Shown piece by piece: positions 44,965 through 64,000 of a DNA stretch of 64,000 nucleotides (position 1 is its first letter; the number at the start of each line of letters is the position of its first letter). This stretch comes from Colwellia sp. 39_35_sub15_T18 (lineage in GTDB: Bacteria; Pseudomonadota; Gammaproteobacteria; Enterobacterales; Alteromonadaceae), in contig MAAE01000015.1 in the NCBI GenBank assembly GCA_002162675.1, forward strand, positions 34,438 through 98,437, given 5' to 3'. Under the pieces are notes generated by a model. That model was not told the origin of the DNA. It made no database searches and was given only the letters and a program-made list of their open reading frames with translations. The translations under genes were made by a program, and so were the position numbers.

Positions 44965-45465
44965 ATGTCAAACATATTGCTTGCTGAATTGAGCAACATG
45001 CCAGCCAACTCAAAATCAACAGTCATGTTGAAAGAGTACCTTAGTAAGTTGTTAAAAGAAGGCTGGAAGTTACCGGAGGGCAACAGCAAGGAAGGTGTTG
45101 ACATAACGGCTCTTACGAACTCAGCGGGGCTTGGGCGACAGGCGTTTTACCCTGACCGAGGTGCCGCTGAAACTATAACAATGTACCAATGGGCAGTGAA
45201 AAAAATTGGTATTGAAACCATTATTGAGCGAGAAGAACGCGCATTAAATTCAGACACAACTGACGCAGAAATATTAAAGACGATGCTGAAAGAATCCGAA
45301 AGAAAGCTTGGAGATAAAGGTAAAGAAGTTCTGAAGTTACAGGCACATAACAGAAACCTTGTTAAGCAACTTAAAAAACGTAATGACGAGATCGAGCAAA
45401 TGAATTCCGTCAATACAGCGCGTCTGGATGGATATGAGGTGATAATCCCGTGGATAAACGAATAA
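44965..45465 (+). CDS. Small HTH-like plus coiled-coil protein in the recombinase operon
   Basis: VDITALTNSAGLGRQAFY HTH-like segment followed by heptads; ATG 1 nt after the previous stop. Confidence 0.65.
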   Translation: MSNILLAELSNMPANSKSTVMLKEYLSKLLKEGWKLPEGNSKEGVDITALTNSAGLGRQAFYPDRGAAETITMYQWAVKKIGIETIIEREERALNSDTTDAEILKTMLKESERKLGDKGKEVLKLQAHNRNLVKQLKKRNDEIEQMNSVNTARLDGYEVIIPWINE

Positions 45466-45476
45466 TTAACAGCTTC

Positions 45477-47498
45477 ATGTTGGTGACATCCATTCGCCCA
45501 CAGCTTAACTCTGTTAGCGTCTCTGGCACATACGACAAGCAACAACGCACGGCTGAATTTCCAGACCTCAATAATATTCCGCGTGTTGGGGATTTAATTC
45601 AGATGAACGGCATCCTTGTACAAGGGGAGCGTCGAAGAGTTCTGAAAGTAAAAAGTTGGAAGCTTACACCTGCGACTGCCGCAAATATTTTTGAATTCAT
45701 TAAACGCGCTATATCCTTTAAGAGTGTCTTAAATAATCGACAGCTAAAAGCCCTTCATAAAGCCTACTTTGCCTTTCCAAGGCGGCTCATTGCAGCTATG
45801 TCGGGAAATCGAACAGCAGAATTGGAACGAGTCGTCGGTTGTTTCATGACTGCCGCCAAACTTGAAGGGGCTTGGGAGGTTCATCTCCGTGAACTCAAGG
45901 TTGTGCACTATTTGTCAGAATACAGCTTAAACCCGCAGGAGGCGCTCGCTATGCTCGATTTACATCACCTTAAAGTCATTGAGGTTGTTGAAACCAACCC
46001 CTACGCGCTGATGCCTGTCATAGGCTTTGAACGAGTGGACGCTATCTGTATGAAAAAAGGGATTGATGAATTTGACCCTCAACGGCTTGCTGCCCTTGGC
46101 TGTTACTTAGCTAGAAAGCAAACGCAGAATACTGGCAGTAGTCTGTTAAGCGAACATGACTTCAATATCGGAGCACAGGAGTTTGGGGTTGATACTCGTT
46201 CAATAATTTATGAATCAAAGCGCAGTGGGGTCTTGATTGTAAACGGGGAGTGTATAACTTCAGCTTGCTATCACGAGATGGAAACAAGGATTCGCACCTA
46301 TCTAACACAAGTAGAAAGGCTTCCTTGTGTGATGTTTCATGATTACGAAATTGACACTGAAATATCTCTATTTAACCGGATTGGAATATTCCCTTTGCAT
46401 GAAAAGCAAGCTTTGGCTGTTCGGCTCGCTATGCATCATCCAATCACCTGTATACGAGGCGCGGCAGGGGTTGGAAAAACAGAAGTCATCAATGCTATCT
46501 CAACCATTAACAAGCGAATGACAGGAACGTCTGTGACATCAACCGCGTTGAGTTCAATTGCTGTTGATCGTATAAAACAAGCCACAGGTCTTAAAGAATG
46601 CTACACAATCGCAAAACTCAAATCCGACTACTTGCTGAAAAAGCTAGACATCAAAGCTGGCACAATCTTAGTAGTTGATGAAAGCTCTATGCTGAGCGTT
46701 CAGGATCTATATGTGCTCTGTAACCTCGGTCTTCGTGATGTTCGTATAGTGTTTGTTGGTGACACAAATCAGTTAGAACCGATAGGTTACGGCTCTTTCT
46801 TTAAACAAGCGACACAATACTTTCCAACCACAACATTAACAAAAGTATGGCGAGCTGAGGCAAAAGAAATAACTTTTGCAGCCAACACTATTTTGAACGG
46901 TGAACGACCAAGTGCTCAAGGTGCATTTGGCTATATAAAAAGACAGATAAATGAAATAGTATCTTATGCACACGAAGAGAATGCACAAGTTATCGCTGCA
47001 ACAAATAGAACAGTGGCAAAGATAAACACGGAGATCCAAACAGCTAAATATTCTGCATCTGCGGTGCCAGACCTCTCGATTATGTCAACACCTTTTTATC
47101 GAGGTGATAGAGTGATTTTCACTAGGAACTTGAATAACTTAGGAATATACAATGGACAGTTTGCCAAGTTCGTATGGGCTAAGAACAACGAACTAGTATT
47201 TCATCTTGAAACTGCAAGCGGGAAGCACAGTGAAAAGATTATTAGTTATCATCAGGCTGCCAATGCAGGTGTTCAATTGGGGTACGCTTGTACGGGACAC
47301 AAGTCACAAGGGGCTGGCTTCGACAAAGTTGTAGCGGTGATGGAGAATATACCTATGTGCAATAAAAACTGGGCATACACAGCAATAACAAGAGCGAAAA
47401 AAGAAGTACGTGTTGCTGAAATTACAAGGCTAGAAACTGTGATGAACCAACCAATTCTACAACGAATGACGCAACGAATGGTTCCGCTAGTGTCTTAA
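45477..47498 (+). CDS. RecD2-like SF1B helicase/ATPase
   Basis: GAAGVGKT, VVDESSM, VGDTNQLEPIG, GYACTGHKSQG, YTAITRAK; N-terminal NPY..GFERVD segment; ATG at 45477 preferred over 45450. Confidence 0.88.
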   Translation: MLVTSIRPQLNSVSVSGTYDKQQRTAEFPDLNNIPRVGDLIQMNGILVQGERRRVLKVKSWKLTPATAANIFEFIKRAISFKSVLNNRQLKALHKAYFAFPRRLIAAMSGNRTAELERVVGCFMTAAKLEGAWEVHLRELKVVHYLSEYSLNPQEALAMLDLHHLKVIEVVETNPYALMPVIGFERVDAICMKKGIDEFDPQRLAALGCYLARKQTQNTGSSLLSEHDFNIGAQEFGVDTRSIIYESKRSGVLIVNGECITSACYHEMETRIRTYLTQVERLPCVMFHDYEIDTEISLFNRIGIFPLHEKQALAVRLAMHHPITCIRGAAGVGKTEVINAISTINKRMTGTSVTSTALSSIAVDRIKQATGLKECYTIAKLKSDYLLKKLDIKAGTILVVDESSMLSVQDLYVLCNLGLRDVRIVFVGDTNQLEPIGYGSFFKQATQYFPTTTLTKVWRAEAKEITFAANTILNGERPSAQGAFGYIKRQINEIVSYAHEENAQVIAATNRTVAKINTEIQTAKYSASAVPDLSIMSTPFYRGDRVIFTRNLNNLGIYNGQFAKFVWAKNNELVFHLETASGKHSEKIISYHQAANAGVQLGYACTGHKSQGAGFDKVVAVMENIPMCNKNWAYTAITRAKKEVRVAEITRLETVMNQPILQRMTQRMVPLVS

Positions 47499-48102: not shown

Positions 48103-49221
48103 ATGGCAGTACGTTTGGATACGGTATTAATTAAAACGGCAAGCCGTTGTAATTTAGATTGCTCTTATTGTTATGTTTACCAAGGTGAAGATACTAGTTG
48201 GAAACAGCAACCTAAAAAGATGTCCGTAGAAACAATAAACGTGCTAGTTAACCGACTTGTTGAACAGTCACAAAGCCAAAGTGTCGGTTTTGCAATTGTT
48301 CTTCATGGAGGGGAGCCTTTATTGCTTGGGTATGAGCGATTGCAATATCTTCTTAAGCTATTAAGGGAGAGTTTTAATCACGAGCTATATCCGATAAGCC
48401 TACAAACCAATGGGGGCTTGTTAACAAAAAAGTATCTAGATCTTTTTTCTGATATGAAAGTTAGTGTCTCTGTTAGTATTGATGGGAATAGGCTCGCTAA
48501 TGATTTGGCTAGAGTCAGCCGTTCAGGACAAAGTTCATTTGATGATACCGTTAAAGGTATTCATTTATTGAAAAGCCATCCTGATAATGATTTTCTATTC
48601 GCTGGAACGCTTTCTGTTGTACAGCCATCTATATCACCACTCGACACCTACAATTTTTTGAAAAGTTTAGGCACTCCAAGCATGGATTTTCTATTTCAGG
48701 ATGGTAATCATGATAAATTACCGCTAGGTAAAATATCATTTGAGTCAACTGAATATGGTTCATGGATGTCTGAGTTATTGACGATTTATCTTTCTGATAA
48801 AGAGCCTGTAAAGATACCTTGTATTGATGACATTATAAGGTTATCGATGGGGGGGAAATCATCTAAAGAAGGGAAAGGGCAAGAGTCATTTGGTATTTTA
48901 ATAATAGAAACTGATGGTGAAATAAGAAAAAACGATACACTACGATTATCATTTGACGGTGCTGACTTTTTCAGTGTTAGGGAAAATGTTAGAGATACCC
49001 CTTTATCTAGGGTTATTAACTCTAGTGAATTTAAAGCTGTTTCTGAATTACAGACACCCACGTCTTCAACTTGTTTAAATTGTGCCTCTTTAGACGTTTG
49101 TGGTGGTGGAATGCCTCTTTACAGATGGAGCGATCAAAATGGATATGATAACCCTTCAATTTTCTGCAAAGATCATTATATTTTTATTGAAAATATAAAA
49201 TCCACTTTGCATGGAATCTAA
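48103..49221 (+). CDS. yhhB: Cyclophane-forming radical SAM/SPASM peptide maturase
   Basis: CNLDCSYC, HGGEPLL, IIETDG, C-terminal CLNCASLDVCGGG...IFC. Confidence 0.88.
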   Translation: MAVRLDTVLIKTASRCNLDCSYCYVYQGEDTSWKQQPKKMSVETINVLVNRLVEQSQSQSVGFAIVLHGGEPLLLGYERLQYLLKLLRESFNHELYPISLQTNGGLLTKKYLDLFSDMKVSVSVSIDGNRLANDLARVSRSGQSSFDDTVKGIHLLKSHPDNDFLFAGTLSVVQPSISPLDTYNFLKSLGTPSMDFLFQDGNHDKLPLGKISFESTEYGSWMSELLTIYLSDKEPVKIPCIDDIIRLSMGGKSSKEGKGQESFGILIIETDGEIRKNDTLRLSFDGADFFSVRENVRDTPLSRVINSSEFKAVSELQTPTSSTCLNCASLDVCGGGMPLYRWSDQNGYDNPSIFCKDHYIFIENIKSTLHGI

Positions 49222-49247
49222 TTTATTTTCATCAAATAGGCTAAATT

Positions 49248-49838
49248 ATGTTTCCAAATTTAAATGATATTGACTTTAAGGATGAACCTTATAAGTTTTT
49301 TTCTAGTTCTCCAAATACCGATGATAAAACGATATCAACATGGTTAGATTGGTTTGAAAATCAAGCGCCTTGGCGTTTAGTTGAGACGGATTTTTATGAG
49401 CAACATGAATTTAGCTTATTAAATATGGATTTGCCAGAATGTGTTTCTATCTTGGCTCATGAGGATACTTTAAATCATGTGAAAAGTAAGGTTGAGGAGT
49501 TATTTAATGTTCGACTTTCTAGTAATTTAGAAGTTATCGCTCATAAATTAGTTAAGGGTCAAACGATTCGAATTCATAATGACTTTCTAAATATTAATGA
49601 TAGAGAGACGCATAGAGTATTACTACAATTAAACCGAAATTTTGATGAAAGTAACGGTGGCTTTTTGATGATATTTAAAGGGAAGGAGCCTGAAGATTTA
49701 GTTGAGATAATCGAACCTATTAGTGGTTCTGTTCAAGGGTTTGAAATATCTTCTGAATCACATCATGCCGTGAGTACCATCCATAGCGGAGAAAGGTATA
49801 CAGTGGTTTATTCCTTTAGAGAAATAGTTAACGATTAA
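49248..49838 (+). CDS. yhhC: 2OG-Fe(II) oxygenase associated with the cyclophane RiPP
   Basis: IRIHND (HxD), GG.L, SHHAVS (distal H), ERYTVVYSF. Confidence 0.85.
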   Translation: MFPNLNDIDFKDEPYKFFSSSPNTDDKTISTWLDWFENQAPWRLVETDFYEQHEFSLLNMDLPECVSILAHEDTLNHVKSKVEELFNVRLSSNLEVIAHKLVKGQTIRIHNDFLNINDRETHRVLLQLNRNFDESNGGFLMIFKGKEPEDLVEIIEPISGSVQGFEISSESHHAVSTIHSGERYTVVYSFREIVND

Positions 49839-49981
49839 TTACAGAATATGAATGGCATAGCTACCTGTCAGATTTAATTAAGCTCTGTAATTTACAAATG
49901 TCAGAATTTCTGTTTCATCCAACACAACACACAAATCAATGCGCAATAACTTATGCCACCATTTAGTAATTCCGTTTACAG

Positions 49982-51361
49982 TTAACTGCATTTAGCGAAT
50001 ACCTCTAAGGCTTTTACTTGTTGCAACGCACAGTTTTTAGGCCAACCAAATCGCTTATCATCAGGAACACCTGCTGAAGTATCAAATGGCACTATCCATA
50101 AACTTAAGACACTCTCATCATCAAAATCAAAACTCTGCTCAATAGCCTCTTGAAAGTCAGCATGACTTGGGTAAATCAAAAATAGCTCACCTTTACCCTT
50201 TAAATATTTATGACCGTAGGCAAACATTTGATAAAAATCTGATTGTGATAAACCATATTTATTGTCTTCATCTGTTTGATTAATCAACTTCCACTTAGTA
50301 TCAAGTACGCAGGCACTTTGACCTTTTTTTATTCCGTTAGTGTAACGAAGTAAAAGGTCAGGTTTGAGTTGAAATCGTCTTTTACTTTTATGTTTAACCA
50401 AGTATTTAGAACTAGCTTGTGTCTTTAAACTTAAACCTTCAAGAGGATGTTTATTTAAAATACTCGCGACATAGCTTTCAAATACGGCTTCCATGGGGAA
50501 CAACAATGAAAAAGCATTACTTTTCCCTTGTAATGTTAGTGGTGAAAACCCTTCAAGAATTAGCCTTGTCCACGCAAGAGGGGCTTCATAATAATTCATA
50601 CCTCTATCGAGCTTGATACTGGCAAAATCATTCTTAATATTATTACTGACAGGTATGTCGGCAAAAGCAAACAGTAACTCTTGAATGAGTTTTTGGTTAT
50701 TGGCACTTCGACTGTAGCCACTTACTTTTTTTAGTGCTGTGTGAAGTAAACGATTTACGGGCCTATCTTGCTGATATTCTTCATACTCAACATAAAATTT
50801 ATGCTTATTAATGAAATTATGCTGAACTTGCTTGCCCACTAATAATTTACCTTTTAAGAAAGCAACATTATCTTGCTGTCTCACATAATCACTGCGTAAC
50901 CCTCGCTTAATTAGCGTATTTACCGCAGTCAAAAATTGGCTTATAAACACCTCTAATAACGGTATTTTATTTTTAGCCAAGTTAGCATTATGAGTTTGAA
51001 GATGGCGAAACTGCTTCAGTTCTTTTAACATCATCAACAGCGAGGCACGAGACACCTCTTTAGCATCACCACTTGCTATTTTTTTAGCAAGCTTTGGTAG
51101 AACTTCTATTTGTGTTCCGTCAGGCGTAAAAAGAACGCCTGCATAGTTTTGAACTTGCAGCACTTCACAATTATCAACCTGCTTTAAGCGTAAAAATCTA
51201 CTTTCTGATTCATCACACAAGCATAGTTTTTTTAAATAATCGTATGCTTTTTTAGAAATTGGTTTTATCTTGGCAGAGGCTTGGATTTTATTACTATCAT
51301 CATCGCCATTACCTAAATAACCAAATTCAAATACGGATGTTTGTTTCTTTACAACCAGCAT
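49982..51361 (-). CDS. mcrC: McrC-family restriction nuclease subunit
   Basis: VQNYAG, IEVLPK, LFPMEAVFE, LKPDLLL...LDTKWK...SDFYQMFAY; start overlaps the mcrB stop. Confidence 0.9.
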   Translation of the reverse strand: MLVVKKQTSVFEFGYLGNGDDDSNKIQASAKIKPISKKAYDYLKKLCLCDESESRFLRLKQVDNCEVLQVQNYAGVLFTPDGTQIEVLPKLAKKIASGDAKEVSRASLLMMLKELKQFRHLQTHNANLAKNKIPLLEVFISQFLTAVNTLIKRGLRSDYVRQQDNVAFLKGKLLVGKQVQHNFINKHKFYVEYEEYQQDRPVNRLLHTALKKVSGYSRSANNQKLIQELLFAFADIPVSNNIKNDFASIKLDRGMNYYEAPLAWTRLILEGFSPLTLQGKSNAFSLLFPMEAVFESYVASILNKHPLEGLSLKTQASSKYLVKHKSKRRFQLKPDLLLRYTNGIKKGQSACVLDTKWKLINQTDEDNKYGLSQSDFYQMFAYGHKYLKGKGELFLIYPSHADFQEAIEQSFDFDDESVLSLWIVPFDTSAGVPDDKRFGWPKNCALQQVKALEVFAKCS

Positions 51362-53646
51362 TAAGCGTTGCTCTTTTCAGCCACAACAGAGTCTTCACCT
51401 GTAGCAGGTTCTTCATTAACAGATGCTTTATCTATCTTTTTAAGTACAGTTTCATCATAAATTGCTTGGTATGCCAGATGGTTATGCCATGCAGAGTGCT
51501 CATCATCAAAATCAGCGAGTTTGAAGGTCGTCTTTTTATCTTCATAGGTTTCTAAACCATGATCTTCGCCAAAAATATCGTTATATGACGAGACATGCTT
51601 TTTAATGAAAACATATGGGATTAACGCCTTACTCTTCTTTCGATTATCACCCAGCACTAAACGTATTTTATTCCAATCTTCAAAAAAATATTCTTCTAAT
51701 AATGGGATGATTTTATTTCTAAAGACATGTTGAAGCTCTTCAAAGGCTTTATCTTCGTCTTCTAAATCAACTATGGCAGCAACAGGCATAAAGAACGCAT
51801 GACCTAGCGTATGCTCTCGGTCATAAAGCACTTCAATACGTTCATTCATTTTACTCAGTAACAAATTAAGCTTAATGCCGTTAACCGACTTACCTGCAAA
51901 TAATTCAGGTTTTGGCATCATTTCAACAAAATCAAAACGACGGCGTAATGCAGTATCCATCATCGCCAACGATCTATCTGCCGTGTTCATCGTACCAATG
52001 ATGTGAAGGTTGTCAGGAACAGAAAAAAGAACATTTGAATAAGGCAACGTTACTTCTATCGCTTCAGGTTGTCCGTTACGTTTTGATGGTTCTATTAGAG
52101 TAATTAACTCACCAAATATTCTTGAAATGTTACCTCGGTTAATTTCATCAATAATTAAAACAAAGTTTTTTCTTTCCACAGCAGGCATCTGCTCAGGAGC
52201 ACTAATCTCTCTTAAAAATTTGACTAACGGACGATAGTAAACTCCTAATCCAGACTTGTACTCACGTCTACCTTCAAAAATTTCTCTTAGGGTGGAAATA
52301 CTTAATGTGTGATCTTGGCTGCCACCTCTTTTTTCAAAAAATATCCGCTTGTCATTAAAGTCCAAAATTTTAAATGAGGTCTTAGACATATTCACTTCAA
52401 CGTAATCTTCTTCAGAAAACAGTTCTGTAAAAGCTAACCAAGCATTGTCGAAATTATATGTCGATTCAGAGGCTTTACTATTGAGAAACTTTTCGGCCTG
52501 ACGAGCTATGTCTTTAAAAACACCAGCTTCAACATCGTAGGATATATTGCCATCATCTGAAGAAGCTTTAAGCCCTTCAACAAATTCTTCATAACCATAA
52601 CTTTGATGAAAAGTAACAAACCTAATTCGGCCTTCTGACACTAAATCATCGTATTGCTCTTGATACTCTGCTCTTACTTCATCAATAGAACCTTCTTCAG
52701 GAGAAAATCCAGGCTCTGCCGCATTAACAGCTTCCACTATTGTATTATATGTTTTACCTGTTCCTGGAGGGCCATAAAGGATCTTATTTAAAGACCCTTG
52801 AGTTATTGTTGGATATTTCTGTTCATCAGAATTAACAAAACTTTCACTGTTATTTTTCATGAACAATTCAAAATTTTGTTTCGCACCGTTAAAAGCAAAA
52901 TCAATTAAGGCTTTACGTTCTGGTTTGTCTGGTAAGACTCTCCAAATACGTTTTTGATAGGTATACATGTACCAAGTTAATTTTTTAAAATTGGGTTGCC
53001 AGTCAACTTTTACGGTTTTACCATCATTTAAATTCTCAATAACGATACCAATAGCTTTGATATCCATGACCGATGCCATTTTTCCATTGTTATCAAAAGG
53101 TAAACCATGAGTTTGAGTGTATACTGACTTTATTGCGATCTTATCGCCTTTTTGTATTTGTTTTATTTTATCAGTATATTTCCCATCATTACCGCCTTGC
53201 CAGATACTTTCCTTAATAAACCGTTCAGTTTGGTCATCAACGCCACCATATGAAGCGCCTAAAAACCAATACACTTTATTACTTTCATCACTCTTTCCCT
53301 GTACTTCAAACCCCAAAGTGCTAGCTTTATCTACGAACCTTGAAATATTATCGATACCCCATTGAGTCGTTATCAATAACTCCCCATCTGTAACAGAAAT
53401 AATTTCATCATCTTTGGAAAAGTAACGATTATTTTTTTTATCATCAGAGTTTTCAGGTAATGCATCATATTCAATTTTATTTATAAAAATCCCTCTTGTA
53501 CCTTGCAGTTCATTAGGAAAAGCTTCGAGTAACTCCTGCAAGTTTGGCGCTTCATTTTCAACGTATTCCTTTATCACAGCTAAAACTAAACGGTTCTTAT
53601 GGTGAGAGCGCCCATTAAATATATATTTTGTAAAATCTTTTAGCAT
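51361..53646 (-). CDS. mcrB: McrB-family AAA+ GTPase with extended N-terminal specificity domains
   Basis: LYGPPGTGKT, TFHQSYGYEEFVEG, IIDEINRGN, GTMNTADRS, ALRRRF. Confidence 0.92.
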   Translation of the reverse strand: MLKDFTKYIFNGRSHHKNRLVLAVIKEYVENEAPNLQELLEAFPNELQGTRGIFINKIEYDALPENSDDKKNNRYFSKDDEIISVTDGELLITTQWGIDNISRFVDKASTLGFEVQGKSDESNKVYWFLGASYGGVDDQTERFIKESIWQGGNDGKYTDKIKQIQKGDKIAIKSVYTQTHGLPFDNNGKMASVMDIKAIGIVIENLNDGKTVKVDWQPNFKKLTWYMYTYQKRIWRVLPDKPERKALIDFAFNGAKQNFELFMKNNSESFVNSDEQKYPTITQGSLNKILYGPPGTGKTYNTIVEAVNAAEPGFSPEEGSIDEVRAEYQEQYDDLVSEGRIRFVTFHQSYGYEEFVEGLKASSDDGNISYDVEAGVFKDIARQAEKFLNSKASESTYNFDNAWLAFTELFSEEDYVEVNMSKTSFKILDFNDKRIFFEKRGGSQDHTLSISTLREIFEGRREYKSGLGVYYRPLVKFLREISAPEQMPAVERKNFVLIIDEINRGNISRIFGELITLIEPSKRNGQPEAIEVTLPYSNVLFSVPDNLHIIGTMNTADRSLAMMDTALRRRFDFVEMMPKPELFAGKSVNGIKLNLLLSKMNERIEVLYDREHTLGHAFFMPVAAIVDLEDEDKAFEELQHVFRNKIIPLLEEYFFEDWNKIRLVLGDNRKKSKALIPYVFIKKHVSSYNDIFGEDHGLETYEDKKTTFKLADFDDEHSAWHNHLAYQAIYDETVLKKIDKASVNEEPATGEDSVVAEKSNA

Positions 53647-53710
53647 TTGTGATTTCTTTCCTATTTTTTAATAGATCCATTAATAACTGAAAGCTCGTGA
53701 AAGAAACTAA

Positions 53711-54790
53711 TTAACTCTCTTGTTCTTCTGGGTAAGCCAGTGGTGTAACAGCAGACCATCCTTCGCGTGCTGGTGCATTATTCTGCGTTCTTATACAGCC
53801 ATCTTCAGTCGAAATAACTTTACCTTTTCGATGAATCATACCTCTAACAACAGATTTTCTTGGATGATGTTCATCTTCTTTGGATGCACTAACAATTGCT
53901 GTAAAAGTAGTGTCATCAGGTGCAGGTTGAAAGAAAGGTTTCTCACCTAACCAACGATCTAATAATTCAGTCGAGACATTTCGTCTAGAGCCATGATGTG
54001 GCACTTGAAAACGGTCTATACCTGGCAATGCAAGTCCAGCATATGGAGCATAATCAGCGGCTTCGGTTAATGCATCACGTCCAGCATCACCTGTAAGTAA
54101 TATTTTGTTGTCACATAAATAAGCATACTGAACAACACTCATTTCATTTTCCGCAGAAGTTGGATCTGATGAAAAATTCTCATCTCCCCAAAGCACAGCC
54201 ACTATGGTACGAGCAGCTTCATTCAACATTCCGAACAAGCCACTAAAAACATCTTCAGATTTTTCGTGATGTTCAGGGGTTTTATCAGACTCAACAACTA
54301 AATCTAAATATCGAGTTTTAGACGGAGCCATTACCGTAAACCCTCCAATAAAAGCACCTTGTAACGGCTCTTTTATAGTTATACCTTTTTGTGAGGCAAT
54401 ATCTTCTAACGCAACTAAGTTGGGGTATAATTCTTTTAATCTTTTCTTTAAATTTTCTACTGAAGTGAAACGCTTGAATCTATCGATAAGCTCGTCTGCA
54501 TAAAGCCACGGCCTCAACATCCATAGCTCACCAACATTATAACTTTCTAATACTGTTCTTAACCCACCAGCATGATCACCATCAGGATGAGTTACTACAA
54601 CTGCATCAATATAAGTTGGTGTGCCATAATGTTCATTTATATGCGCAACTACTTTGTCACCTGTAGCTTGAAAGCCGCCATCAACAACATGAATTCGTTG
54701 AACTCCATTGGTTTGATACCTAATGCAAATAGCATCGCCACTTTTTTTAGAATCAACGTTTAAAAAATCAATTTCATAAAAGTCATCCAT
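53711..54790 (-). CDS. MBL-fold metallo-hydrolase (ComEC/Rec2-like catalytic domain, standalone)
   Basis: VVDGG, THPDGDHAGG, LLTGDA, QVPHHGS, HHP. Confidence 0.85.
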   Translation of the reverse strand: MDDFYEIDFLNVDSKKSGDAICIRYQTNGVQRIHVVDGGFQATGDKVVAHINEHYGTPTYIDAVVVTHPDGDHAGGLRTVLESYNVGELWMLRPWLYADELIDRFKRFTSVENLKKRLKELYPNLVALEDIASQKGITIKEPLQGAFIGGFTVMAPSKTRYLDLVVESDKTPEHHEKSEDVFSGLFGMLNEAARTIVAVLWGDENFSSDPTSAENEMSVVQYAYLCDNKILLTGDAGRDALTEAADYAPYAGLALPGIDRFQVPHHGSRRNVSTELLDRWLGEKPFFQPAPDDTTFTAIVSASKEDEHHPRKSVVRGMIHRKGKVISTEDGCIRTQNNAPAREGWSAVTPLAYPEEQES

Positions 54791-55260
54791 TACTTCTCTT
54801 CCTTATTATCTTCACTCAACTTCCCATTTCTGGTTTTTTCTATGCCAAATAATGACTTACCAATTTCTTCAATTTTTGCCACAAATTTATCAACGTTTAG
54901 CCCTGCAAAAAAAGCAAATGCATAATAACCAAAATTACCAGCATCAGTGTCTTGAGACGCATCCAGAACAACTAAACCAGCTTTCAAAAATACATAAGCC
55001 ACAATCCCGCATATAAAACTGGTTAATGGTCGCAAGTAGTACCAAATTTCCCACGATTTAGTCCACCTGTCATGAACACAGCGATTGAGATAAACGGAGC
55101 GTAGGCAATACAAAACACCACCTAATGTGGCTATCAACGCACATCGAATTGCCAATTCACTCTCAGCTAATGATTCAGGCAAGCCAAATTGCTCTAGACC
55201 TAAAAATACAGACGCTATTATTAAAAGCATCACTACCAAATATGTAATCACCAATTTCAT
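54790..55260 (-). CDS. Uncharacterised multi-TM membrane protein
   Basis: About four hydrophobic segments; WYYLRP...G and FAFFAG; stop overlaps the MBL start. Confidence 0.75.
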   Translation of the reverse strand: MKLVITYLVVMLLIIASVFLGLEQFGLPESLAESELAIRCALIATLGGVLYCLRSVYLNRCVHDRWTKSWEIWYYLRPLTSFICGIVAYVFLKAGLVVLDASQDTDAGNFGYYAFAFFAGLNVDKFVAKIEEIGKSLFGIEKTRNGKLSEDNKEEK

Positions 55261-55273
55261 TTACGTTCCTTGT

Positions 55274-56440
55274 CTATAGTTCGCCAGAGAAAGCTTTTTG
55301 GCTCAAAGATTCAAACAATGGTTGATGACTTTGATTTTTAGCCCGTTGCAACAATTGCAATGTACTTTGAACTATTGATTCAAACCTCTCTTGCACACCT
55401 ATTGGTGGGACAATAACATCAAGAGACTCTACTTGCAGTTTTGTAAGAGCTTCTCTAGTTGCACCACCAGCACTAGCGATACTCATGATCTTTTGTTTGT
55501 AACTACTCGATGTAATTAACCTTGCTATAAAAATTGGCAATACCTTTTCTGGTTTAGTTCTTACGATACATACGTGCTGGTTAACTCTTGCGGGTAATAT
55601 GTCATTATCAACCAGCGCAGCCCTACAAACAGAAGCTCCCGTTATGTTCAATAAAAGATCATCTTTTTCAATTATCACGTTTTTTAACTTTTCAGCCTGT
55701 TCATCCGATATAAAAGCGAGATTTTTATGTACAAATTTATTGTCATGAACATTTAGACTACGGATTAACGAAATGCCTTGCTCAATATATGCCTCCTTAC
55801 CACCTCTAGGCGTAGAACCACTTCCTAACTTATTAGTTAGTTCTTTTAGTGATTTAACATCCCAACCTTTCGGATTGGTGACGGGATCGCCAAACATATC
55901 TAGGAAGACGCTGCGGAGGAAGTCGTCGGCGAGGTTGATGCCTTGTTGGCGTTTTCGGCGAATGGCATCGGCTTTATCTAATATCGTAACGATGCGTTTT
56001 TGCTCATTCAGTGGTGGCAGTAACATTGGATAATCTTTAAGAGCATCCATATCTACACCACTTTGACCAGCAGTGCGCTGTGATAAGCCATCAATTAATC
56101 GAAAAAGCTTATCTTGTTTCAAAAAATGGTAAAGATAATCTTTATCTACTTTTTCTGAAGGTTTTGCTTTCATTAAGGCAACATTATATGCACCTTCTAG
56201 CCCTTTTAATATTTGGAATACCGGGGGGCCATAACGCCCAATCATTACGTCATGCTTAGTACAAAACTTCTTAGTTGAGTCTTCTTTAATATAAGTTAAG
56301 TTCTTATCAGATTTATAATCTCTAATTTGCAATAAGCGAACATACCCTTCTTTAGGCTCATATATGAAGGAAGATTTTGGAGGTTGTGATCCACCAACAA
56401 AACTAACAACATCTCCAAGCTTAACTACAGGGCAACTCAC
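55274..56440 (-). CDS. hsdS: Type I R-M specificity subunit
   Basis: Two TRDs with conserved [10 protein letters not shown] and PPIGVQERF repeats; GTG start overlaps the hsdM stop. Confidence 0.92.
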
Positions 56441-58026
56441 AGCATTTTCTCCAACACTTTTAAATCAGCTAAAATTTCATTTTCTAAGCTCACTAGCTTA
56501 CCTAAGATCTCTTTTGGTGGATCGTAGCTTTCTTCTTCATATACAACTTCTTTGTAGCGGTTGATGGAAAGGTCGTATTTGTTCGAAGTAATATCATCTT
56601 TACTTACCCAAAAAGCTTTCTGAGTTTTATCGTTTTTGTCCGTTTCAGCAACGGATTTATCACGCGCTTTAAATTCAGCTACTAAGCTTGGCAAGTCATT
56701 ATCTTTAATTGGGGTACGTTTATCATCAAGCGAGAAACCATCGGCTTGTACATCATAAAACCAAACATGGTCGGTAGTGCCACCTTTAGTGAAAATTAGA
56801 ATAGCAGTTGATACACCCGCATAAGGTTTAAAGACACCACTTGGCAGTGAAATAACGGCTTCAAGCTGATTGTTATCAATTAATAACTGACGCAGTTGCA
56901 CGTGGCCTTTTGATGAACCAAATAATACACCATCAGGCACGATAGTCGCTGAGCGGCCACCCACTTGTAACATGCGCTCAATAAGCGCTACAAAAAGCAA
57001 CTCTGTTTTCTTAGTTTTAACTTTACGTAATAGTTCTGGGCAAACATCTTCTTCGTCTAATGACCCTTTGAACGGTGGATTGGCGAGAATAATTTGCATG
57101 CCGCCTTTTGCTTCATTAGGGAAGTTTTCACTAAAGCGCTGGCTTAAGGTATCTTGATAATGAATGTCGGGCTGTTTAATACCGTGCATTACCAAGTTCA
57201 TTACTGCAACACGTAACATGGTAGCGTCAAAGTCAAAGCCGTGAAACATGTCAGTATCAATGTGTTTTCTGTCTTCTGGTTCAATTAAGTCGCCAGAATA
57301 AAGTACATTTTCAACTTGCTTGCCATGGATATCTAACATCGGTATACCTGCATCATCGCCTTCGCTGATGAATAGTGGCTCTCGTTCAATGCCTTCGGCA
57401 GAGGTATATTTTTCCAGCAAGTATTCATAAGAAACAGATAAAAAACCACCTGTTCCAGTTGATGGATCGCAAATACGGCTGGTTTTATCAGGGTCCATGA
57501 TTTCAACCATGGCACGAATGATATGACGTGGCGTTCTAAACTGACCGTTAATACCTGCGGTTGTTAACTTACTAAGCAAGTATTCATATAAATCACCTTT
57601 GGTATCGGAATTATCAAGTGGCAAGTCGTTAACCATTTCTACCGCTTTTACCAATAAGCTTTGCTTTTGGATCATCAATTGCGCATCTTTCATAAACTCG
57701 GCAAACAGTGATCCTTCATTATCTTCTGATGAACTTGAAGCAAAAAATGGAAACAGCTCATCTTTTACCACTTTATAAAGCTCTTCAGCACCTAAATGGC
57801 GAATATTTTGCCAGCGCAAATGTTGCTGCTGTTCGTTAAAGCGGTGATTAAACGCTTTTTTAGTACGGGCGCTGCGTTTTTCATCAGCTTGTTCGTTCAT
57901 ATCAAGCATGCGGGCATACATTAAAAAGGTAATTTGCTCAATTACCGTTAACGGATTGGTTATACCGCCCGTCCAGAATTCTTCCCAAAGTTTGTCTATT
58001 TTGCTTTTTAGTGGACCAGTGATCAT
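56437..58026 (-). CDS. hsdM: Type I R-M N6-adenine methyltransferase
   Basis: [34 protein letters not shown]. Confidence 0.94.
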
Positions 58027-58110
58027 GTGGTTCTCTTCGTTTTGTTTTATTCGGCTGTGACTATAAATTTGTTAGTTAGCCTAATATTGATTTTAAAATT
58101 AGTATTAAAT

Positions 58111-61100
58111 TTAGATTCGGATTTCTTTTTCGATGCTTGTTGACTTATCGCCAAGTTCAACATCAAATTGTTTTATAAATTGTTCAATAACATCGGCTTG
58201 TTTTTCGTTAAATACACCGTCTAGACCCATGTCGTGAATTTGAGTAAATGGCGCATCATACAGTTGTTCTATTTGAATGGAACCATAACGAATTAAGTGG
58301 TTCTTTAACATGCTTATAAAGCGCAGTTGTTTAGCGTTAACATGAGTATGTATTTCTTGTACAAACTCCATAAAACTTTGCTCAATAGCAGCTTTATCCA
58401 TACCGACTATGGTTCGAAGGATTTTGTCTAGGCTTGCTGATGATTCAGGGAAAAATTCTTTAAGAGTATTTAAATCAACTTTCGGGTTTTGGGTATGCAC
58501 TAATGAGTTTAGTTGTACTAAATCATCTTTACTCACCGCAATACCCGCTCGTATTTTTTGCAAAACAACATCAGTTTCGAATAATGGTGACAGTGTTTTT
58601 TCTACCTCTTGACGGAATATTTGATAATCAATAGACACAATTTTGGTTGGCCTTTCAGTCACTATATAATCTGCTGCATCTTCTTTAATATCTAAGATGA
58701 GTTCTGGCTCAGGTACATAAGTACCTTTGTCACGCAAATGGATAATGCTACGCAGTGCTATGCGGCTTTCTTCTAATGCTGCAAAGGTTAAATCTTGCCA
58801 ATAGGCTTCAGTTTGTATTTTGGCAATATCACTTGCTTTAGCTCGCACTTCATTAAGGTGCATTTGCAGCGTTTCAACTTTGTTCATTACACTTTGCTTG
58901 GCCAAATCAATTTGACTTGGGTCGATATATACCAAGGTTTGAATGATTGCCATTTCATTATCAAATTTATAGGCTTCACTTTGCCCCATGATATTGCGCC
59001 ATTGCATCAGTGATGCTACTTGCTCAAACAAATTTGCTTTCATTTGCGGAGCGAATTGGTTGAGTGCTTTTTCATCTTTACATGCTTCAACGACTTGCCA
59101 GTTATCTCGTACAGCTATGGTATTCATATCAAGAGAACATACATCTTGATAAATTAATTTAATCACTTCATCAAAAGTTGCTACATCCGCTTTTTTAAGC
59201 GTGGTTTCAGCCAAGGTTAAACGTGATTCAAAAAGCTTTTGGGTAAGCGATTTGCTTTGCTTTACGTCTTCTTCTTCTGGGTCCATATCGAAGTAATCGA
59301 AGTTTTCCCAGTGATCGAATATCAAGAAGTGTGATTTATCTTTACCTTTGCCATAGAGGTCTTTACATAAACGTGTACCACGACCAATCATTTGCCAGAA
59401 TTTAACTTTCGACTTGATTGGTTTAGCAAAAACAAGGTTTACACATTCTGGTACATCAATACCTGTATCAAGCATATCCACTGACACAGCAATACGAACG
59501 CTATTTTCTTCACTTGATTTAAAGTCATCAGTGAGTTCTTCTGCTCGTTCAAATTTTGAGTGAATGAAACGACAAAAGTTACTGCCAAGTTGTGGGTACA
59601 TTTCACCAAATAATTCTACCAATAGTTCAGCGTGAAGTATGTTACGAGCAAAAACAATGGTTTTTCCCGGTAATTGCCCATCAACATCACGTATACCTTT
59701 TTCCATTAAGTTACGTAAAATAACACGGTTGGTATCTTTATTTTTAACGGCTTCATCAACTTGCTTTGCATCAAAGTTTAACTCGTTAGGATCGATACCC
59801 TGTTCTTCAAGCTGAGCAACCTGTTCGTCTGTTAGGTTATCTTTTTTAATGCCTTCACGTAGAAATTTTGTGGTAAAACTAACAATTTTATAAGGAACTA
59901 AGTTCTCTTCTTCAATCGCTTGTTCTAACGGATAGTTAGCTGTTGGCAATTTGAAGTCACAGCCAAATAACTGACAAGTTGAACGCGATACCATCTCGAC
60001 AGGTGTTGCGGTTAAACCGATCTCTAACGCATCAAAGTATTTAAAGATATCACCATATATATTATAAATAGAGCGATGTGATTCATCTGCCACTATAAGA
60101 TCGAAATATCCAACATCATACTTTTGAAATATGCTCATCATACCTGGGTATGTAGCGACAAATACACGAGCGCTGTCTGCCAATCCTTTTTTACTTTTAC
60201 CAACAACATACAAAGGTTCATTGGTATGTTCATTAAAGGCATTACCTGCTTGTTTTCGTAGTTCTTTTCGGTCACATAAAAACAAGACTCGCTTAGCCCA
60301 ACCTGCATCTAATAGTCGTTTAGCTAATGCGATAGAAACACGGGTTTTTCCTGTTCCTGTTGCCATAACCATAAGTGACTTGCGGTGTTTTTTGCTAAAA
60401 CGTTCGCTAACACGTGTGATAGCTTCCATTTGATATATGCGTCCTGCGACATTGGTATCAATTGGAGTTTGATTTAAGTCTTTTTTAAGGCTGCGTTGTT
60501 TTATAAGGTATTGCAGACTGTCTTTTGAGTAGTAACCGTATAGCTTACGGCTATTGTAACCTTGTGCATCGTCTAAAATACGAATGTCGTAGCCATTAGA
60601 ATAGAATATTACTGGACGTTGACCATATTGAGTTTCTAATGCATCAGCATAAATTTTGGCTTGTTCTCGACCTTTTTCAGCAGAGTGTTTAGCCGCTTTA
60701 GCTTCTATGACTGCTAGTGGTTTTCCATCGTCATCCCAAAGCACATAGTCAACTCGGCCATTACCTGTAGGTGTTGGTTGGTTAGTTACATCAACTTCTT
60801 TACCAACTTCATCGGTACTCGATTCATCAAGCGATACATCCCATCCTGCGGCACGTAAGTCCATATCAATAATACGAGCACGAGTTTCATCTTCGCTAAA
60901 GTTAAAGCTTGAGGTAATTTGTTTATTGCGCCCTTTAACTTCAGCCACTTTCGCTTGATTGATAGTTTGTTTAAGTTTGGCAGCTTCAAGCTGCGCTAGT
61001 TTTTGCGCTTGCTCAGATATGGCTAATTCTTCTAGTGCTTTTTTCAGGCGAGTTTCATTATCAGCGAGTTGCTCGGCAAGTTGCTTGTTCTTTTTAGTGA

Positions 61101-61551
61101 ATTCAGCGTCAGCCTGATTTACGGGCTGCTTTTGTTCTGGTGCTGTAAATACAGGACAATCGCTTTGCTTGCCATTGTCGTAAGCCATAAATAGATAACA
61201 GGCAATAAAATAGCTTTCTTTAAGTATCCAGATCGCTTGTTGTTGATCAACCTGACCTTGGTGGGCAGCTTGGTTGCCACTTTTACGAATAGCATGCAGT
61301 TTGTCGGTAATAAGATTTGGAACGACACTGGTGAAATCGTCAGACGTGAGTTTATCGTAGATAGTGGAATTAGGAAAAACAGGCAGTCGTAGCTCTTTGT
61401 AGAGATAACCAACGACTTGTTCAGCAAAGCAGCGTAACTTTACCAGTGCGCTTTGCGGATCATCAATAGCATATTCTTCTGCAAATGCAGCAAGCTGATG
61501 TAACTGTGGCCACCTTTTTTGAATATGTTCAAAATTCATTGATTGCTTCAT
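58111..61551 (-). CDS. hsdR: Type I restriction subunit R (EcoAI/EcoEI-like, N-terminal DUF4145-like domain)
   Basis: GRVDY...IEAK nuclease motif, MATGTGKT, DESHR, QMIGRGTR; start at 61551 or 61539 because ATG 61575 lies upstream of the predicted sigma-54 +1. Confidence 0.92.
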   Translation of the reverse strand: MKQSMNFEHIQKRWPQLHQLAAFAEEYAIDDPQSALVKLRCFAEQVVGYLYKELRLPVFPNSTIYDKLTSDDFTSVVPNLITDKLHAIRKSGNQAAHQGQVDQQQAIWILKESYFIACYLFMAYDNGKQSDCPVFTAPEQKQPVNQADAEFTKKNKQLAEQLADNETRLKKALEELAISEQAQKLAQLEAAKLKQTINQAKVAEVKGRNKQITSSFNFSEDETRARIIDMDLRAAGWDVSLDESSTDEVGKEVDVTNQPTPTGNGRVDYVLWDDDGKPLAVIEAKAAKHSAEKGREQAKIYADALETQYGQRPVIFYSNGYDIRILDDAQGYNSRKLYGYYSKDSLQYLIKQRSLKKDLNQTPIDTNVAGRIYQMEAITRVSERFSKKHRKSLMVMATGTGKTRVSIALAKRLLDAGWAKRVLFLCDRKELRKQAGNAFNEHTNEPLYVVGKSKKGLADSARVFVATYPGMMSIFQKYDVGYFDLIVADESHRSIYNIYGDIFKYFDALEIGLTATPVEMVSRSTCQLFGCDFKLPTANYPLEQAIEEENLVPYKIVSFTTKFLREGIKKDNLTDEQVAQLEEQGIDPNELNFDAKQVDEAVKNKDTNRVILRNLMEKGIRDVDGQLPGKTIVFARNILHAELLVELFGEMYPQLGSNFCRFIHSKFERAEELTDDFKSSEENSVRIAVSVDMLDTGIDVPECVNLVFAKPIKSKVKFWQMIGRGTRLCKDLYGKGKDKSHFLIFDHWENFDYFDMDPEEEDVKQSKSLTQKLFESRLTLAETTLKKADVATFDEVIKLIYQDVCSLDMNTIAVRDNWQVVEACKDEKALNQFAPQMKANLFEQVASLMQWRNIMGQSEAYKFDNEMAIIQTLVYIDPSQIDLAKQSVMNKVETLQMHLNEVRAKASDIAKIQTEAYWQDLTFAALEESRIALRSIIHLRDKGTYVPEPELILDIKEDAADYIVTERPTKIVSIDYQIFRQEVEKTLSPLFETDVVLQKIRAGIAVSKDDLVQLNSLVHTQNPKVDLNTLKEFFPESSASLDKILRTIVGMDKAAIEQSFMEFVQEIHTHVNAKQLRFISMLKNHLIRYGSIQIEQLYDAPFTQIHDMGLDGVFNEKQADVIEQFIKQFDVELGDKSTSIEKEIRI

Positions 61552-61577
61552 TCCTGTTTGATTCCTTGTGTCCATAA

Positions 61578-61595
61578 TTGCAAGAGCAGCGCCAA
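61578..61595 (-). promoter_or_regulatory. Sigma-54 (-24/-12) promoter upstream of hsdR
   Basis: Minus strand TTGGCGC-TGCTC-TTGCAA matches TGGCAC-N5-TTGCW with exact GG-N10-GC spacing. Confidence 0.75.
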
Positions 61596-61620
61596 ATTTA
61601 CTTATTGAATGTTTCTATCA

Positions 61621-63123
61621 CTATTTTTCTGATGCTAAACCTAAACGCTTCATCCAGTTGCTTAGCGTTTGGTGGTCTTTTAATCCAAGCATCTTAGTTG
61701 CATGTTTCTTTATGTTCCCGCTTGCTTTCAATGCCGCTTCAACATAGTTTTTTTGATATTGTTCAGTAAGTTGAGTAATATCAACTTTGTCATTATAAGA
61801 TAATACGACATCTGTACAATCATTACTTTGATGTCGATTAATTATCGCATCACTAAGATCTTTATCTGTAATGATTTGTGAGTCTGACCACAAAAACGCT
61901 CTGTTTAATGTGTTCCATAATTCTCTAATATTACCAGGCCAAGACTGCGATAAAATAAAATTAATTCCCTTTTCGGAAATATTTTTACCTACGTAGTATG
62001 GATGTTTACAGCCAGCTTTGTTTATTTGCTTAGTAAGTTGCTCAACTATAAACGGGATATCTTCAGCTCGCTCTCGTAATGCAGGCATTTGAATAATGCC
62101 TACAGCCAAACGATAAAATAGGTCTTCTCGAAACTTTCCTTTACTTACTAGCTTCAATAAATCTTGATGCGTAGCTGCAATTACACGCACATCCACATTG
62201 ATTGTTTTTGTATCGCCTAGCCGATTAACTTCACCTTGCTGTAATACTCTAAGTAATTTAACCTGAATAGTCGGAGTAAGTTCTCCCACTTCATCTAAAA
62301 ATAAAGTTCCACCATTGGCTTGTTCAAAAAGACCAGGGTGATCTTTTTCTGCTCCGGTGAATGCACCCTTTTTATGACCAAACAAAGTAGAATCGACAAG
62401 GCTTTCAGCCAGTGCACCACAATTTACCGTTCTAATTGGTTTATTAGCTCTTAAGCTTCCTTGGTGTATGGCATTAGCCATTAATTCTTTACCTGTGCCT
62501 GTTTCACCTAATATCAAAGCTGACACTTCAGAACGAGCAATTCTCTTGGCTCTTTCGACAACTTCTTTCATCGATAGCGATTGCACAGTTAACTCAGAAA
62601 AGGCTTTTTCAATTTTTGGTAACGATGTTGCAGAATTAGCAATATTTCTGGCAGCCGACTTTACGTACACCTGACCAAAATCAATGGGAATCTCGACTTG
62701 CTGCAACTCATTTTTCGGTGTTGCCTGTAAGAATTGTACATTGGCTTTACCTTTACCTAAAAGAACAGACAAAGTAGTCATTGCAGGTGTACCTGATGTC
62801 AGGTTAATAGATAAGGTATCTGCGGCTTCGCTTAGTTTAGTTATCCAACTTTCAGTTACTTGGTGGATAGATTCATAGTCAATAGGGTTTACGATATCAG
62901 CTTTGTAAACTTGGATATCTTGAGCTGGTCTATTTATAGTTGCCATACGTTTTTTTACAAAACGTTCAAATTGAATCCATTTATTTTCATCTTTATTTGA
63001 AAGAATAACAATTTTATCAAATGGAATTAGTGATTTAGTAGCAAGTGTAATGATGGCAGCACTTTGTTCATGCTCCATATTTAAAATATCACGATTGCCT
63101 AACCAAGTAAGAAGTGTATGCAC
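61621..63123 (-). CDS. Sigma-54 enhancer-binding activator with RtcR/CARF-like N-terminal domain
   Basis: N-terminal TWLGNRD...INLTSGTPAM; GETGTGKE, GAFTGA, FLDEV, FREDLFYRL, WPGNIREL; C-terminal HTH; GTG start. Confidence 0.88.
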   Translation of the reverse strand: MHTLLTWLGNRDILNMEHEQSAAIITLATKSLIPFDKIVILSNKDENKWIQFERFVKKRMATINRPAQDIQVYKADIVNPIDYESIHQVTESWITKLSEAADTLSINLTSGTPAMTTLSVLLGKGKANVQFLQATPKNELQQVEIPIDFGQVYVKSAARNIANSATSLPKIEKAFSELTVQSLSMKEVVERAKRIARSEVSALILGETGTGKELMANAIHQGSLRANKPIRTVNCGALAESLVDSTLFGHKKGAFTGAEKDHPGLFEQANGGTLFLDEVGELTPTIQVKLLRVLQQGEVNRLGDTKTINVDVRVIAATHQDLLKLVSKGKFREDLFYRLAVGIIQMPALRERAEDIPFIVEQLTKQINKAGCKHPYYVGKNISEKGINFILSQSWPGNIRELWNTLNRAFLWSDSQIITDKDLSDAIINRHQSNDCTDVVLSYNDKVDITQLTEQYQKNYVEAALKASGNIKKHATKMLGLKDHQTLSNWMKRLGLASEK

Positions 63124-63204
63124 TGTATATTGCTTATTATTATTTCTTTGTAAACTATCTTACCTTAAATAAAATAATTTACATTATTAAAAACAAGGGA
63201 GATT

Positions 63205-63966
63205 TTAAATTTCGATTTTCATCGAATATCTTCCAATTTTTTCGAAGGTATTATCATTATTTGGCTTGTCAAATTTCTTTGGTGAGATAAGCAAATACTT
63301 GGAACCATCAGTTTTAGGGCTTACTTCCCACATATGATTACAACCTGATCGATTAATAGCAAAACAACCATGCTCTCTAGAGAGCCACTGGTTTTCACTT
63401 ACTTTAACACCACAACAAGGACAGCAAAGAAAATGCTCAAAATTTTCGGCCATTGAGATGATTTTTTCAACAGATTTTTTAATAGTAACATCACGATCAT
63501 TTTTAGTTATTAAATTAGAAATAGTAGGTACTAATGACATAAATGGTTTCGACACGAACATATTATTCTCATGGATCGCCCAATGATCATTGTTAATTTT
63601 TTTCAGCTCATTAATAAGTGATGTTGGTATTTTATTAACTTCTGAATGTAATGATTTATATGTCTCTTTTGCTAACCACTTTGAGATTAATGACGCTAAT
63701 AGCTCTAGAGAATAAAAATTAGTTGGGGAAGAGCAAACTACCTTATTATCGATGATCTTTTCCCGACGTAACGAAAGTAGTACTCTTTGAATTCCGTTGT
63801 CATCTTTAATCTCTGTATTTATTATGCTTTCAGTAAAGCATGGTACAAAGCATAAGCTTTTATTTTCTCTAGTTAAAAAAATCTCTGAATTTTCGGTAAT
63901 TGAAAATCTAATTGGTTTTGTGCCATTTCTAACAAAATGATTAGAACTTTGTTCCTTAAAGTTCAA
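63205..63966 (-). CDS. Hypothetical protein with a possible C-terminal zinc ribbon
   Basis: 253-aa ORF; CCPCCG and GC...GCNH Cys pattern. Confidence 0.6.
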   Translation of the reverse strand: MNFKEQSSNHFVRNGTKPIRFSITENSEIFLTRENKSLCFVPCFTESIINTEIKDDNGIQRVLLSLRREKIIDNKVVCSSPTNFYSLELLASLISKWLAKETYKSLHSEVNKIPTSLINELKKINNDHWAIHENNMFVSKPFMSLVPTISNLITKNDRDVTIKKSVEKIISMAENFEHFLCCPCCGVKVSENQWLSREHGCFAINRSGCNHMWEVSPKTDGSKYLLISPKKFDKPNNDNTFEKIGRYSMKIEI

Positions 63967-64000
63967 TTCATGTAAAGTCCTTTTAACCAGATCAGAGCAA

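Follow-up and report, generated by a model that had tools for sequence, protein, structure and literature searches.

Is restriction at this locus always on, or is it held back until a signal arrives? The question is raised by a 64,000-nucleotide stretch of contig MAAE01000015.1 from Colwellia sp. 39_35_sub15_T18 (the window, from whose first base all positions are counted unless another locus is named). Here the gene for an RtcR-like activator of sigma-54-dependent transcription is followed, on the same strand, by a Type I restriction-modification (R-M) set and several further genes. R-M is usually regarded as constitutive; a sigma-54 promoter, which has nearly no basal activity, would keep the restriction subunit silent until a signal was received. 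The reading favoured here, and held with good confidence, is that the locus is a defence operon headed by the RtcR-like activator, with a signal-opened sigma-54 promoter ahead of the restriction genes. Restriction is probably inducible by a signal, because the layout of activator, promoter and restriction genes is conserved in 49/49 related loci. The window contains the whole gene string, a complete activator and the conserved promoter, and the order of activator, promoter and defence gene is kept strictly across the relatives.

The promoter carries most of the argument. Relatives for comparison were gathered from species genomes (L001-L006), from contigs encoding specific homologues (L060-L066) and from metagenomes, by way of a query with the N-terminal domain of the activator (L067-L113); those having a full-length member of the activator family and at least 100 nt of sequence downstream of it make up the 49 loci. 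In the window, the box TGGCGC-TGCTC-TTGCA starts 26 nt past the TAG stop codon of the activator gene, with the -24 GG at 61593-61592 and the -12 GC at 61581-61580. A preliminary description of this DNA had reported a sigma-54 box between the activator gene and hsdR, and the box is confirmed at 61594-61579 on the minus strand. Counting from the C of the -12 GC, at 61580, places the predicted transcription start (+1) at about 61568. A scan of the window for TGGCAC-N5-TTGCW with at most one mismatch gives four matches, two of them keeping both GG and GC, and this box is the only near-perfect match with GG and GC that lies in an intergenic gap facing a gene. At up to two mismatches there are 49 matches in the window against 38.9±6.2 expected, a number that is not significant alone. 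The weight of the box comes from its conservation rather than from this count. The preliminary description had proposed looking for -24/-12 boxes at other loci with the activator, and the pattern TGG[CT][AG]N-N5-[TC]TG[CA] is present in 49/49 of them, 3-38 nt past the activator stop and in 44 distinct sequences, compared with a chance expectation of about 0.005 per locus for a random 120-nt stretch. In the aligned promoters the TGGCA and TTGC columns alone are conserved; the 5-nt spacer and the sequence on either side are free to differ. In this alignment the box stands out clearly as the phylogenetic footprint of a sigma-54 promoter.

The predicted +1 also bears on where hsdR begins. The open reading frame (ORF) as called starts at ATG 61575, which would sit at -7 relative to a +1 near 61568 and is without counterpart in the relatives. 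All loci have a start that corresponds to ATG 61551 and follows an AAGGA-type ribosome site; the protein there opens with MKQSMNFEH or, in a second hsdR lineage described below, with VKKSNFEF. The conserved start supports the earlier claim that a +1 near 61568 excludes the start at 61575; it implies an HsdR of 1146 amino acids (aa), and gives annotators reason to shift the start codon of hsdR from 61575 to 61551.

That the gene ahead of this promoter encodes a sigma-54 activator complete in its domains, with an N-terminal domain of the RtcR-like CARF kind, is supported by profile matches, invariant motifs and a structural model. The family Sigma54_activat (PF00158) matches residues 180-342 at 1.4e-68, and AAA_lid_14 is matched as well. 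Among 81 homologues the Walker motifs GETGTGKE and LFLDEVGE are invariant, as are G253, T256, G257 and A258 of the GAFTGA loop (G253-A258). The preliminary description had pointed to an intact GAFTGA loop and an LTSGTP sensor motif, and both stand, at residues 253-258 and 108-113. In the AlphaFold2 (AF2) model, helices of an HTH domain are predicted at 449-494, a part of the protein for which relatives give weak HTH_8 matches. The PADLOC model RtcR_PspF2--CARF_AAA_HTH (PDLC01995), so named because its AAA+ and HTH core is close to PspF, is matched at 3.4e-180, with residues 1-496 aligned to model positions 1-480 of 481. The NCBIfam RtcR model (NF038308) aligns over residues 19-487 at 308.9 bits, where the curated cutoff is 650, and ten further relatives score about 280-336 bits on it. 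Given a score of 309 bits against a 650-bit cutoff, and given that rtcA and rtcB are absent from the window by tblastn (best E 0.52), as the preliminary description had also concluded, the activator is not RtcR proper. No rpoN gene is found within the 64-kb window. Searched alone against 1.84 billion proteins, the N-terminal domain retrieves 111 cluster representatives at E ≤ 1e-3, of which many have a length near 500 aa. Those relatives that are named belong to marine gammaproteobacteria (Shewanella, Alteromonas, Pseudoalteromonas, Colwellia and Psychrosphaera).

CARF profiles match the N-terminal domain itself weakly, with Pfam Cas_Csm6_CARF at 1.2e-4 and 22.2 bits, under the cutoff of 27.5, and the PADLOC models CARF_HEPN and Csx1/Csm6 at 9.5e-6 and 1.1e-5; three homologues hold a precomputed PF22208 match, and a distant stand-alone relative of the domain has a Csm6 match. 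By BLASTP the activator is collinear with E. coli RtcR from residue 56, at 29% identity, and INLTSGT aligns with IHITTGT. Searches of the PDB with the family profile gave matches confined to the AAA+/HTH part (from about residue 145) and none for the N-terminal domain, and a PDB sequence search with residues 1-200 of E. coli RtcR gave no match. A single-sequence AF2 prediction, with a predicted local distance difference test score (pLDDT) of 36, was discarded in favour of one based on the 81-sequence alignment, which has a pLDDT of 83 overall and about 90 over residues 1-150. The domain is modelled as an alternating beta-alpha, Rossmann-like fold with strands at 2-7, 37-42, 70-74, 103-107, 129-134 and 140-143, of which the final two are adjacent (a beta5-beta6 hairpin); this arrangement is the CARF core of Makarova et al. 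2014. T6 is the polar residue expected at the end of strand 1 in a CARF domain. Strand 4 is followed by N107-L-T-S-G-T-P113, an RtcR-type variant of [DN]x[ST]xxx[RK] without the basic residue, in which S110 and G111 are invariant across the 81 homologues. Strand order and motifs fit a CARF domain, the outcome that the preliminary description had set as a test of its proposal.

Two further conserved elements lie in and upstream of the activator gene. The upstream one is bipartite and contains the dyad GTAA-N6-TTAC, which in exact form has 38 hits across the 49 loci, all at most 100 nt upstream of the activator start, and none elsewhere between -600 and +3000. Unlike the dyad, the genes upstream of the activator vary among loci. 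The element includes a good -10 (TAAGAT/TAATAT) and is likely to be the activator's own promoter plus a candidate operator or binding site. A further exact GTAA-N6-TTAC (GTAATTCCGTTTAC) is seen at 49966-49979, 3 nt past the mcrC stop, perhaps by chance, as the window has three such sites against 1.6 expected.

The second element is intragenic. Codons 378-389 of the activator show an excess synonymous conservation of 1.03 bits/codon, compared with a gene mean of 0.34 and a sliding-window standard deviation of 0.13, and nearly all of 48 sequences use TCC for Ser383, a rare codon that makes up 8% of Ser codons. The element forms a dyad, TAAA..TTCC-N6-GGAA..TTTA, with its midpoint some 400 nt upstream of the predicted +1. 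It is the best candidate for the enhancer, or upstream activating sequence, and may act as such; a role at the RNA level is also possible. Identity of the upstream dyad with the intragenic motif was considered and rejected, as a position weight matrix of the former ranks the intragenic site best in only 3/49 loci. A repeat at 61753-61784 in the window was likewise rejected as an enhancer because it is not conserved, and a rise in codon conservation there, at residues 443-460, is mostly due to two-codon amino acids in an AT-rich gene.

What follows the promoter differs among the relatives. The next gene is hsdR in about 44 of the 49 loci, and two hsdR lineages can be told apart by their PADLOC REase_I models (PDLC03047 in the window, PDLC03042 in L066). 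Between the window and L066 the activator and the gene upstream of it are 97-98% identical, and divergence sets in immediately past the activator stop; beyond it the window (61579-61620) and L066 (11504-11570) have different promoters and unrelated hsdR lineages. Because nearly identical activators precede different promoters and different hsdR lineages, the promoter appears to travel with its cargo, and the divergence at the stop codon places a point of exchange by recombination at the promoter. In L083 (7500-11379) and L004 the promoter and a start remnant, 'MKKSM', lead into Zorya type I (ZorA1 1.7e-80, ZorB1 3.1e-52) in place of hsdR. In L002 (15029-21286, Shewanella phaeophyticola), Druantia type III comes after hsdR; its DruH is split over three ORFs, and hsdM is not found within 6.5 kb. 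Relatives also show insertions between hsdR and hsdM, comprising Fic/RhuM, DNA ligase and small ORFs (98 aa), and distances of 39 to 2375 nt between the two genes. Short GC-rich hairpins without a T-run (for example gtaggtcgggc...gcccgtc) precede the hsdM ribosome site in L001, L060, L063 and L072-L074, and are not present in the window.

This exchange of cargo invites a wider proposal, that activator and promoter form a portable, infection-inducible cassette into which varied cargo (either hsdR lineage, Zorya I, or hsdR with Druantia III behind it) is plugged at the promoter and first codons, and whose sensor reads RNA damage caused by a neighbouring system such as the adjacent CoCoNuT (see below). 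As a whole the proposal is rather unlikely. If it were true, one defence system would transcriptionally switch on the DNA-restriction arm of another, and the restriction subunit would be absent until infection.

In the window the cargo is a string of seven genes, hsdR-hsdM-hsdS-4-TM-MBL-mcrB-mcrC, in which 4-TM stands for a small membrane protein and MBL for an MBL-fold hydrolase (Table 1). According to the ORF map (49982-63123) all are on the minus strand after the activator gene, and the distances between them, from hsdR to mcrC, are 84, -4, 13, -1, 64 and -1 bp. With a largest gap of 84 bp, this agrees with the co-oriented genes, overlapping or less than 90 bp apart, of the preliminary description. 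The gene after mcrC is convergent. No terminator-like site was found on the minus strand in any gap of the string, including that between activator and hsdR, and an Rfam scan of 49500-64000 gave no match.

Table 1. Features of the restriction locus and its surroundings, in order of transcription on the minus strand
Feature	Position	Strand	Evidence or remark
3' part of DUF2357/McrC-like gene, running off the window	63205-64000	-	frame open to base 64000
Bipartite element, GTAAATTATTTTAT, 5 nt, GTAAGATAGTTTAC	63150-63182	-	upstream of activator start
RtcR-like enhancer-binding protein, 500 aa	61621-63123	-	CARF-like 1-150; AAA+ ~176-424; HTH ~449-494
Intragenic element, GGTAAAAATATTTCC GAAAAG GGAATTAATTTTAT, 35 nt	61955-61989	-	synonymous-site constraint in activator ORF
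Sigma-54 type promoter, TGGCGC-TGCTC-TTGCA (TGGCGCTGCTCTTGCA)	61579-61594	-	conserved in 49/49 family loci
hsdR, Type I restriction subunit	58111-61551 (called 58111-61575)	-	PADLOC REase_I 2.2e-256; Pfam
hsdM, Type I methyltransferase	56437-58026	-	PADLOC MTase_I 1.3e-179; Pfam N6_Mtase and HsdM_N
hsdS, specificity subunit with two target-recognition domains	55274-56440	-	PADLOC Specificity_I 3.1e-79, full length; Pfam Methylase_S, 2 stretches
Small membrane protein (4-TM), 156 aa, ~4 hydrophobic segments	54790-55260	-	hydropathy
MBL-fold metallo-hydrolase, defence-candidate family	53711-54790	-	PADLOC PDC-M48B 3e-169; Pfam Lactamase_B
mcrB-like GTPase with long N-terminal region	51361-53646	-	Pfam AAA_5; NCBIfam McrB; NTAD (NxxD)
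mcrC, final gene of the string	49982-51361	-	Pfam McrBC PF10117 3.7e-99

The Type I R-M set is complete, as hsdR, hsdM and hsdS each have a full-length PADLOC match. HsdR belongs to the EcoAI/EcoEI-type family and has ResIII, an N-terminal DUF4145 and an EcoEI_R_C tail (Pfam). The 4-TM protein has hydropathy segments at 1-28, 35-58 and 78-102 and one near 110-125, with no family match in the family scans, and the MBL protein is also weakly similar to Avs1a and LmuA. The last two genes form a canonical McrBC (Type IV) pair, with GTMNTAD in McrB and the PF10117 match of McrC. A CoCoNuT assignment for this pair was rejected, since McrB carries NxxD (NTAD) and not NxD, and a coiled coil is not seen in its sequence. 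In McrB, about 150 residues separate the Walker A region (289-307) from the remainder of the AAA+ domain in the Pfam matches, and the first 116 residues of the N-terminal region (~280 aa) resemble the PADLOC candidate PDC-S57.

How a signal would activate the locus, what that signal is, where the enhancer lies and how far the transcript extends we infer as follows. The activator would be produced from its own promoter, which carries the conserved dyad, and at rest would be inactive, with RNA polymerase-sigma-54 held as a closed complex on the -24/-12 promoter. Binding of a signal to the CARF domain, by analogy RNA ends or cyclic nucleotides, would lead the AAA+ domains to assemble into a ring, which would touch sigma-54 through the GAFTGA loops and open the promoter at the expense of ATP. 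Transcription would begin near 61568 and cover hsdR, and would probably continue through hsdM, hsdS, the 4-TM and MBL genes, mcrB and mcrC. The central part of this scheme, control of restriction by sigma-54 and a CARF activator, was proposed in the preliminary description, and it gains support from the promoter footprint in 49/49 loci together with the complete activator and its CARF-like domain.

Several observations weigh against such a scheme. Three relatives (L100, L103 and L107) have TTGA in place of TTGC at -12, with TGGCAC retained at -24, and their promoters may be weakened or altered. No enhancer was found at the usual -80 to -200, nor any inverted repeat common to the loci within 320 nt upstream; the conserved candidate elements lie at about -400 and -1600, and their motifs differ. 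When the full activator model was compared with the PDB by Foldseek, the top 50 matches were all AAA+ domains, which leaves the CARF fold unconfirmed by fold search, and hhalign of the N-terminal domain against residues 1-200 of E. coli RtcR is weak (E 0.008, probability 5%). Finally, a separate constitutive promoter for hsdMS is likely, because a wholly inducible hsdMS would leave the host DNA unmethylated at induction.

The last point opens onto an alternative in which the sigma-54 promoter drives hsdR alone, while hsdMS, and perhaps 4-TM-MBL and mcrBC, are constitutive, in the manner of the separate promoters of EcoKI. In Type I systems a fully inducible methylase exposes the host to its own enzyme, and control confined to hsdR is attractive since a methylase made constitutively would shield the host. 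Under this arrangement restriction alone would be inducible, with modification constant. The box always stands directly before hsdR, relatives have unrelated genes inserted between hsdR and hsdM, and the 84-bp gap at this place in the window is AT-rich and has a -10-like TATAGT at 58065-58060, shared with the closest relative, L067. However, the loci have no conserved promoter upstream of hsdM, a consensus scan of the hsdR-hsdM gap gave no site with at least 9 of 12 positions, and the tight spacing and absence of terminators are compatible with read-through. On balance, separate control of hsdR is a substantial possibility, if somewhat short of an even one. A further idea is that the box has arisen by chance or is a decayed match, and that the restriction genes are read through from the sigma-70 promoter of the activator. 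It could draw on the unenriched number of matches at up to two mismatches in the window and on the missing terminator between activator gene and hsdR, but the box is kept in every locus amid varying surroundings, where chance would give about 0.005 per locus, and on cassette exchange the box stays with the cargo; this explanation is very improbable.

A different doubt concerns what the sensor recognises. The CARF-like domain may sense no nucleic-acid ligand at all, and respond instead to a protein partner, in the style of PspA-PspF or RtcA/RtcB-RtcR, or to an unrelated small molecule. The segment N107-P113 lacks the basic residue that CARF domains binding nucleotides typically have, and Makarova et al. 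note that a missing basic residue may mean a different ligand (PMC4012209). RtcAB are reported to bind the CARF domain of RtcR directly (PMC9650030), yet rtcA and rtcB are absent from the window. Against this reading, no conserved small partner gene stands beside the activator, whose upstream neighbours differ among the loci, and the conserved loop residues S110, G111, T109 and T112 sit at the CARF ligand position. Control by a protein partner or an unrelated ligand is considered rather unlikely, and the preferred reading keeps RNA ends or cyclic nucleotides as the signal presumed by analogy.

Control of R-M through sigma-54 and CARF by this activator family is in itself an existing prediction, of which the window is a fresh example. 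Makarova et al. 2014 regarded the R-M-linked RtcR-like family as likely sigma-54 activators of downstream genes (PMC4012209), and Bell, Koonin et al. (eLife 2024) described defence superoperons where Type I R-M comes directly after an RtcR homologue (PMC11090510). In both studies regulation was inferred from gene order and neither reports a promoter; a 2025 survey of sigma-54 regulons leaves restriction genes unmentioned, and literature searches found no experimental test of this activator family and no mapped promoter. New here are the conserved promoter, the dyad at the activator promoter, the constrained intragenic element and evidence for the swapping of cassettes at the promoter. The exact location of the promoter and its conservation in every relative examined make a gene-order prediction that dates from 2014 experimentally approachable. 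Signal-gated restriction would cut self-damage and cost, and would join defence systems into a staged response.

The superoperons of Bell et al. (PMC11090510, Figure 8) resemble the window in having a CARF activator at the 5' end directly followed by Type I R-M, accessory 4-TM and MBL-fold genes, close co-directional packing and a CoCoNuT-type system nearby. They differ in that the string in the window ends in a canonical NxxD McrBC rather than a CoCoNuT, and in that the CoCoNuT-like genes would lie upstream of the RtcR-like gene, whereas Bell et al. place the CoCoNuT last. With the RtcR/rtcBA system of E. coli and Salmonella the window shares the CARF-AAA+(GAFTGA)-HTH architecture and a promoter of the same sigma-54 type (E. 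coli TGGCAC-GACGG-TTGCAATTAT, window TGGCGC-TGCTC-TTGCAATTAT, the -12 region being identical). In contrast to RtcR, which is divergent from its target, the regulator in the window is upstream of its target and co-oriented with it, and its cargo is DNA restriction, while rtcBA serves RNA repair. PspF, the sigma-54 activator of the pspA operon in the phage shock response, is close to the window activator in its AAA+ and HTH core and responds to stress of the infection type; it lacks a sensor domain and is under the control of PspA, unlike the window activator with its CARF-like N-terminal domain. Dedicated regulator genes also head other defence operons, as with the BrxR/CapW WYL regulators and the C-proteins of Type II R-M, which tie expression to a signal or to timing. 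These are sigma-70 repressors or activators, whereas the sigma-54 mechanism is all-or-none, with essentially no basal open complex.

The activator gene is itself preceded by what is probably the final gene of a CoCoNuT-type system, co-oriented with it and cut by the window edge. At 97% identity, this ORF corresponds to the C-terminus of a DUF2357 protein of 612 aa in L066. There (positions 1-9919) the genes before DUF2357 encode a Ser/Thr kinase, a UPF1-like helicase and two proteins of 500 and 808 aa. The 808-aa protein, encoded directly upstream of DUF2357, has a coiled coil of about 450 aa and a GTPase with NHD, the NxD signature of CoCoNuT.

On the other side, the gene string is part of a genomic island that begins at an integrase gene (39342-40787), with ordinary chromosomal genes on its left. 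The first part of the island (39342-47498, plus strand) encodes a tyrosine integrase, an 1137-aa protein that has no family match, two small ORFs and a RecD2-like helicase, and may be another defence or mobile-element module. Between this part and the restriction genes, at 48103-49838 on the plus strand and convergent on mcrC, a radical S-adenosylmethionine (SAM) enzyme adjoins a YhhC-type 2-oxoglutarate-Fe(II) oxygenase (NCBIfam cyclophane-containing peptide maturase, 4e-73). The pair is likely to be a maturation pair for a ribosomally synthesized and post-translationally modified peptide (RiPP).

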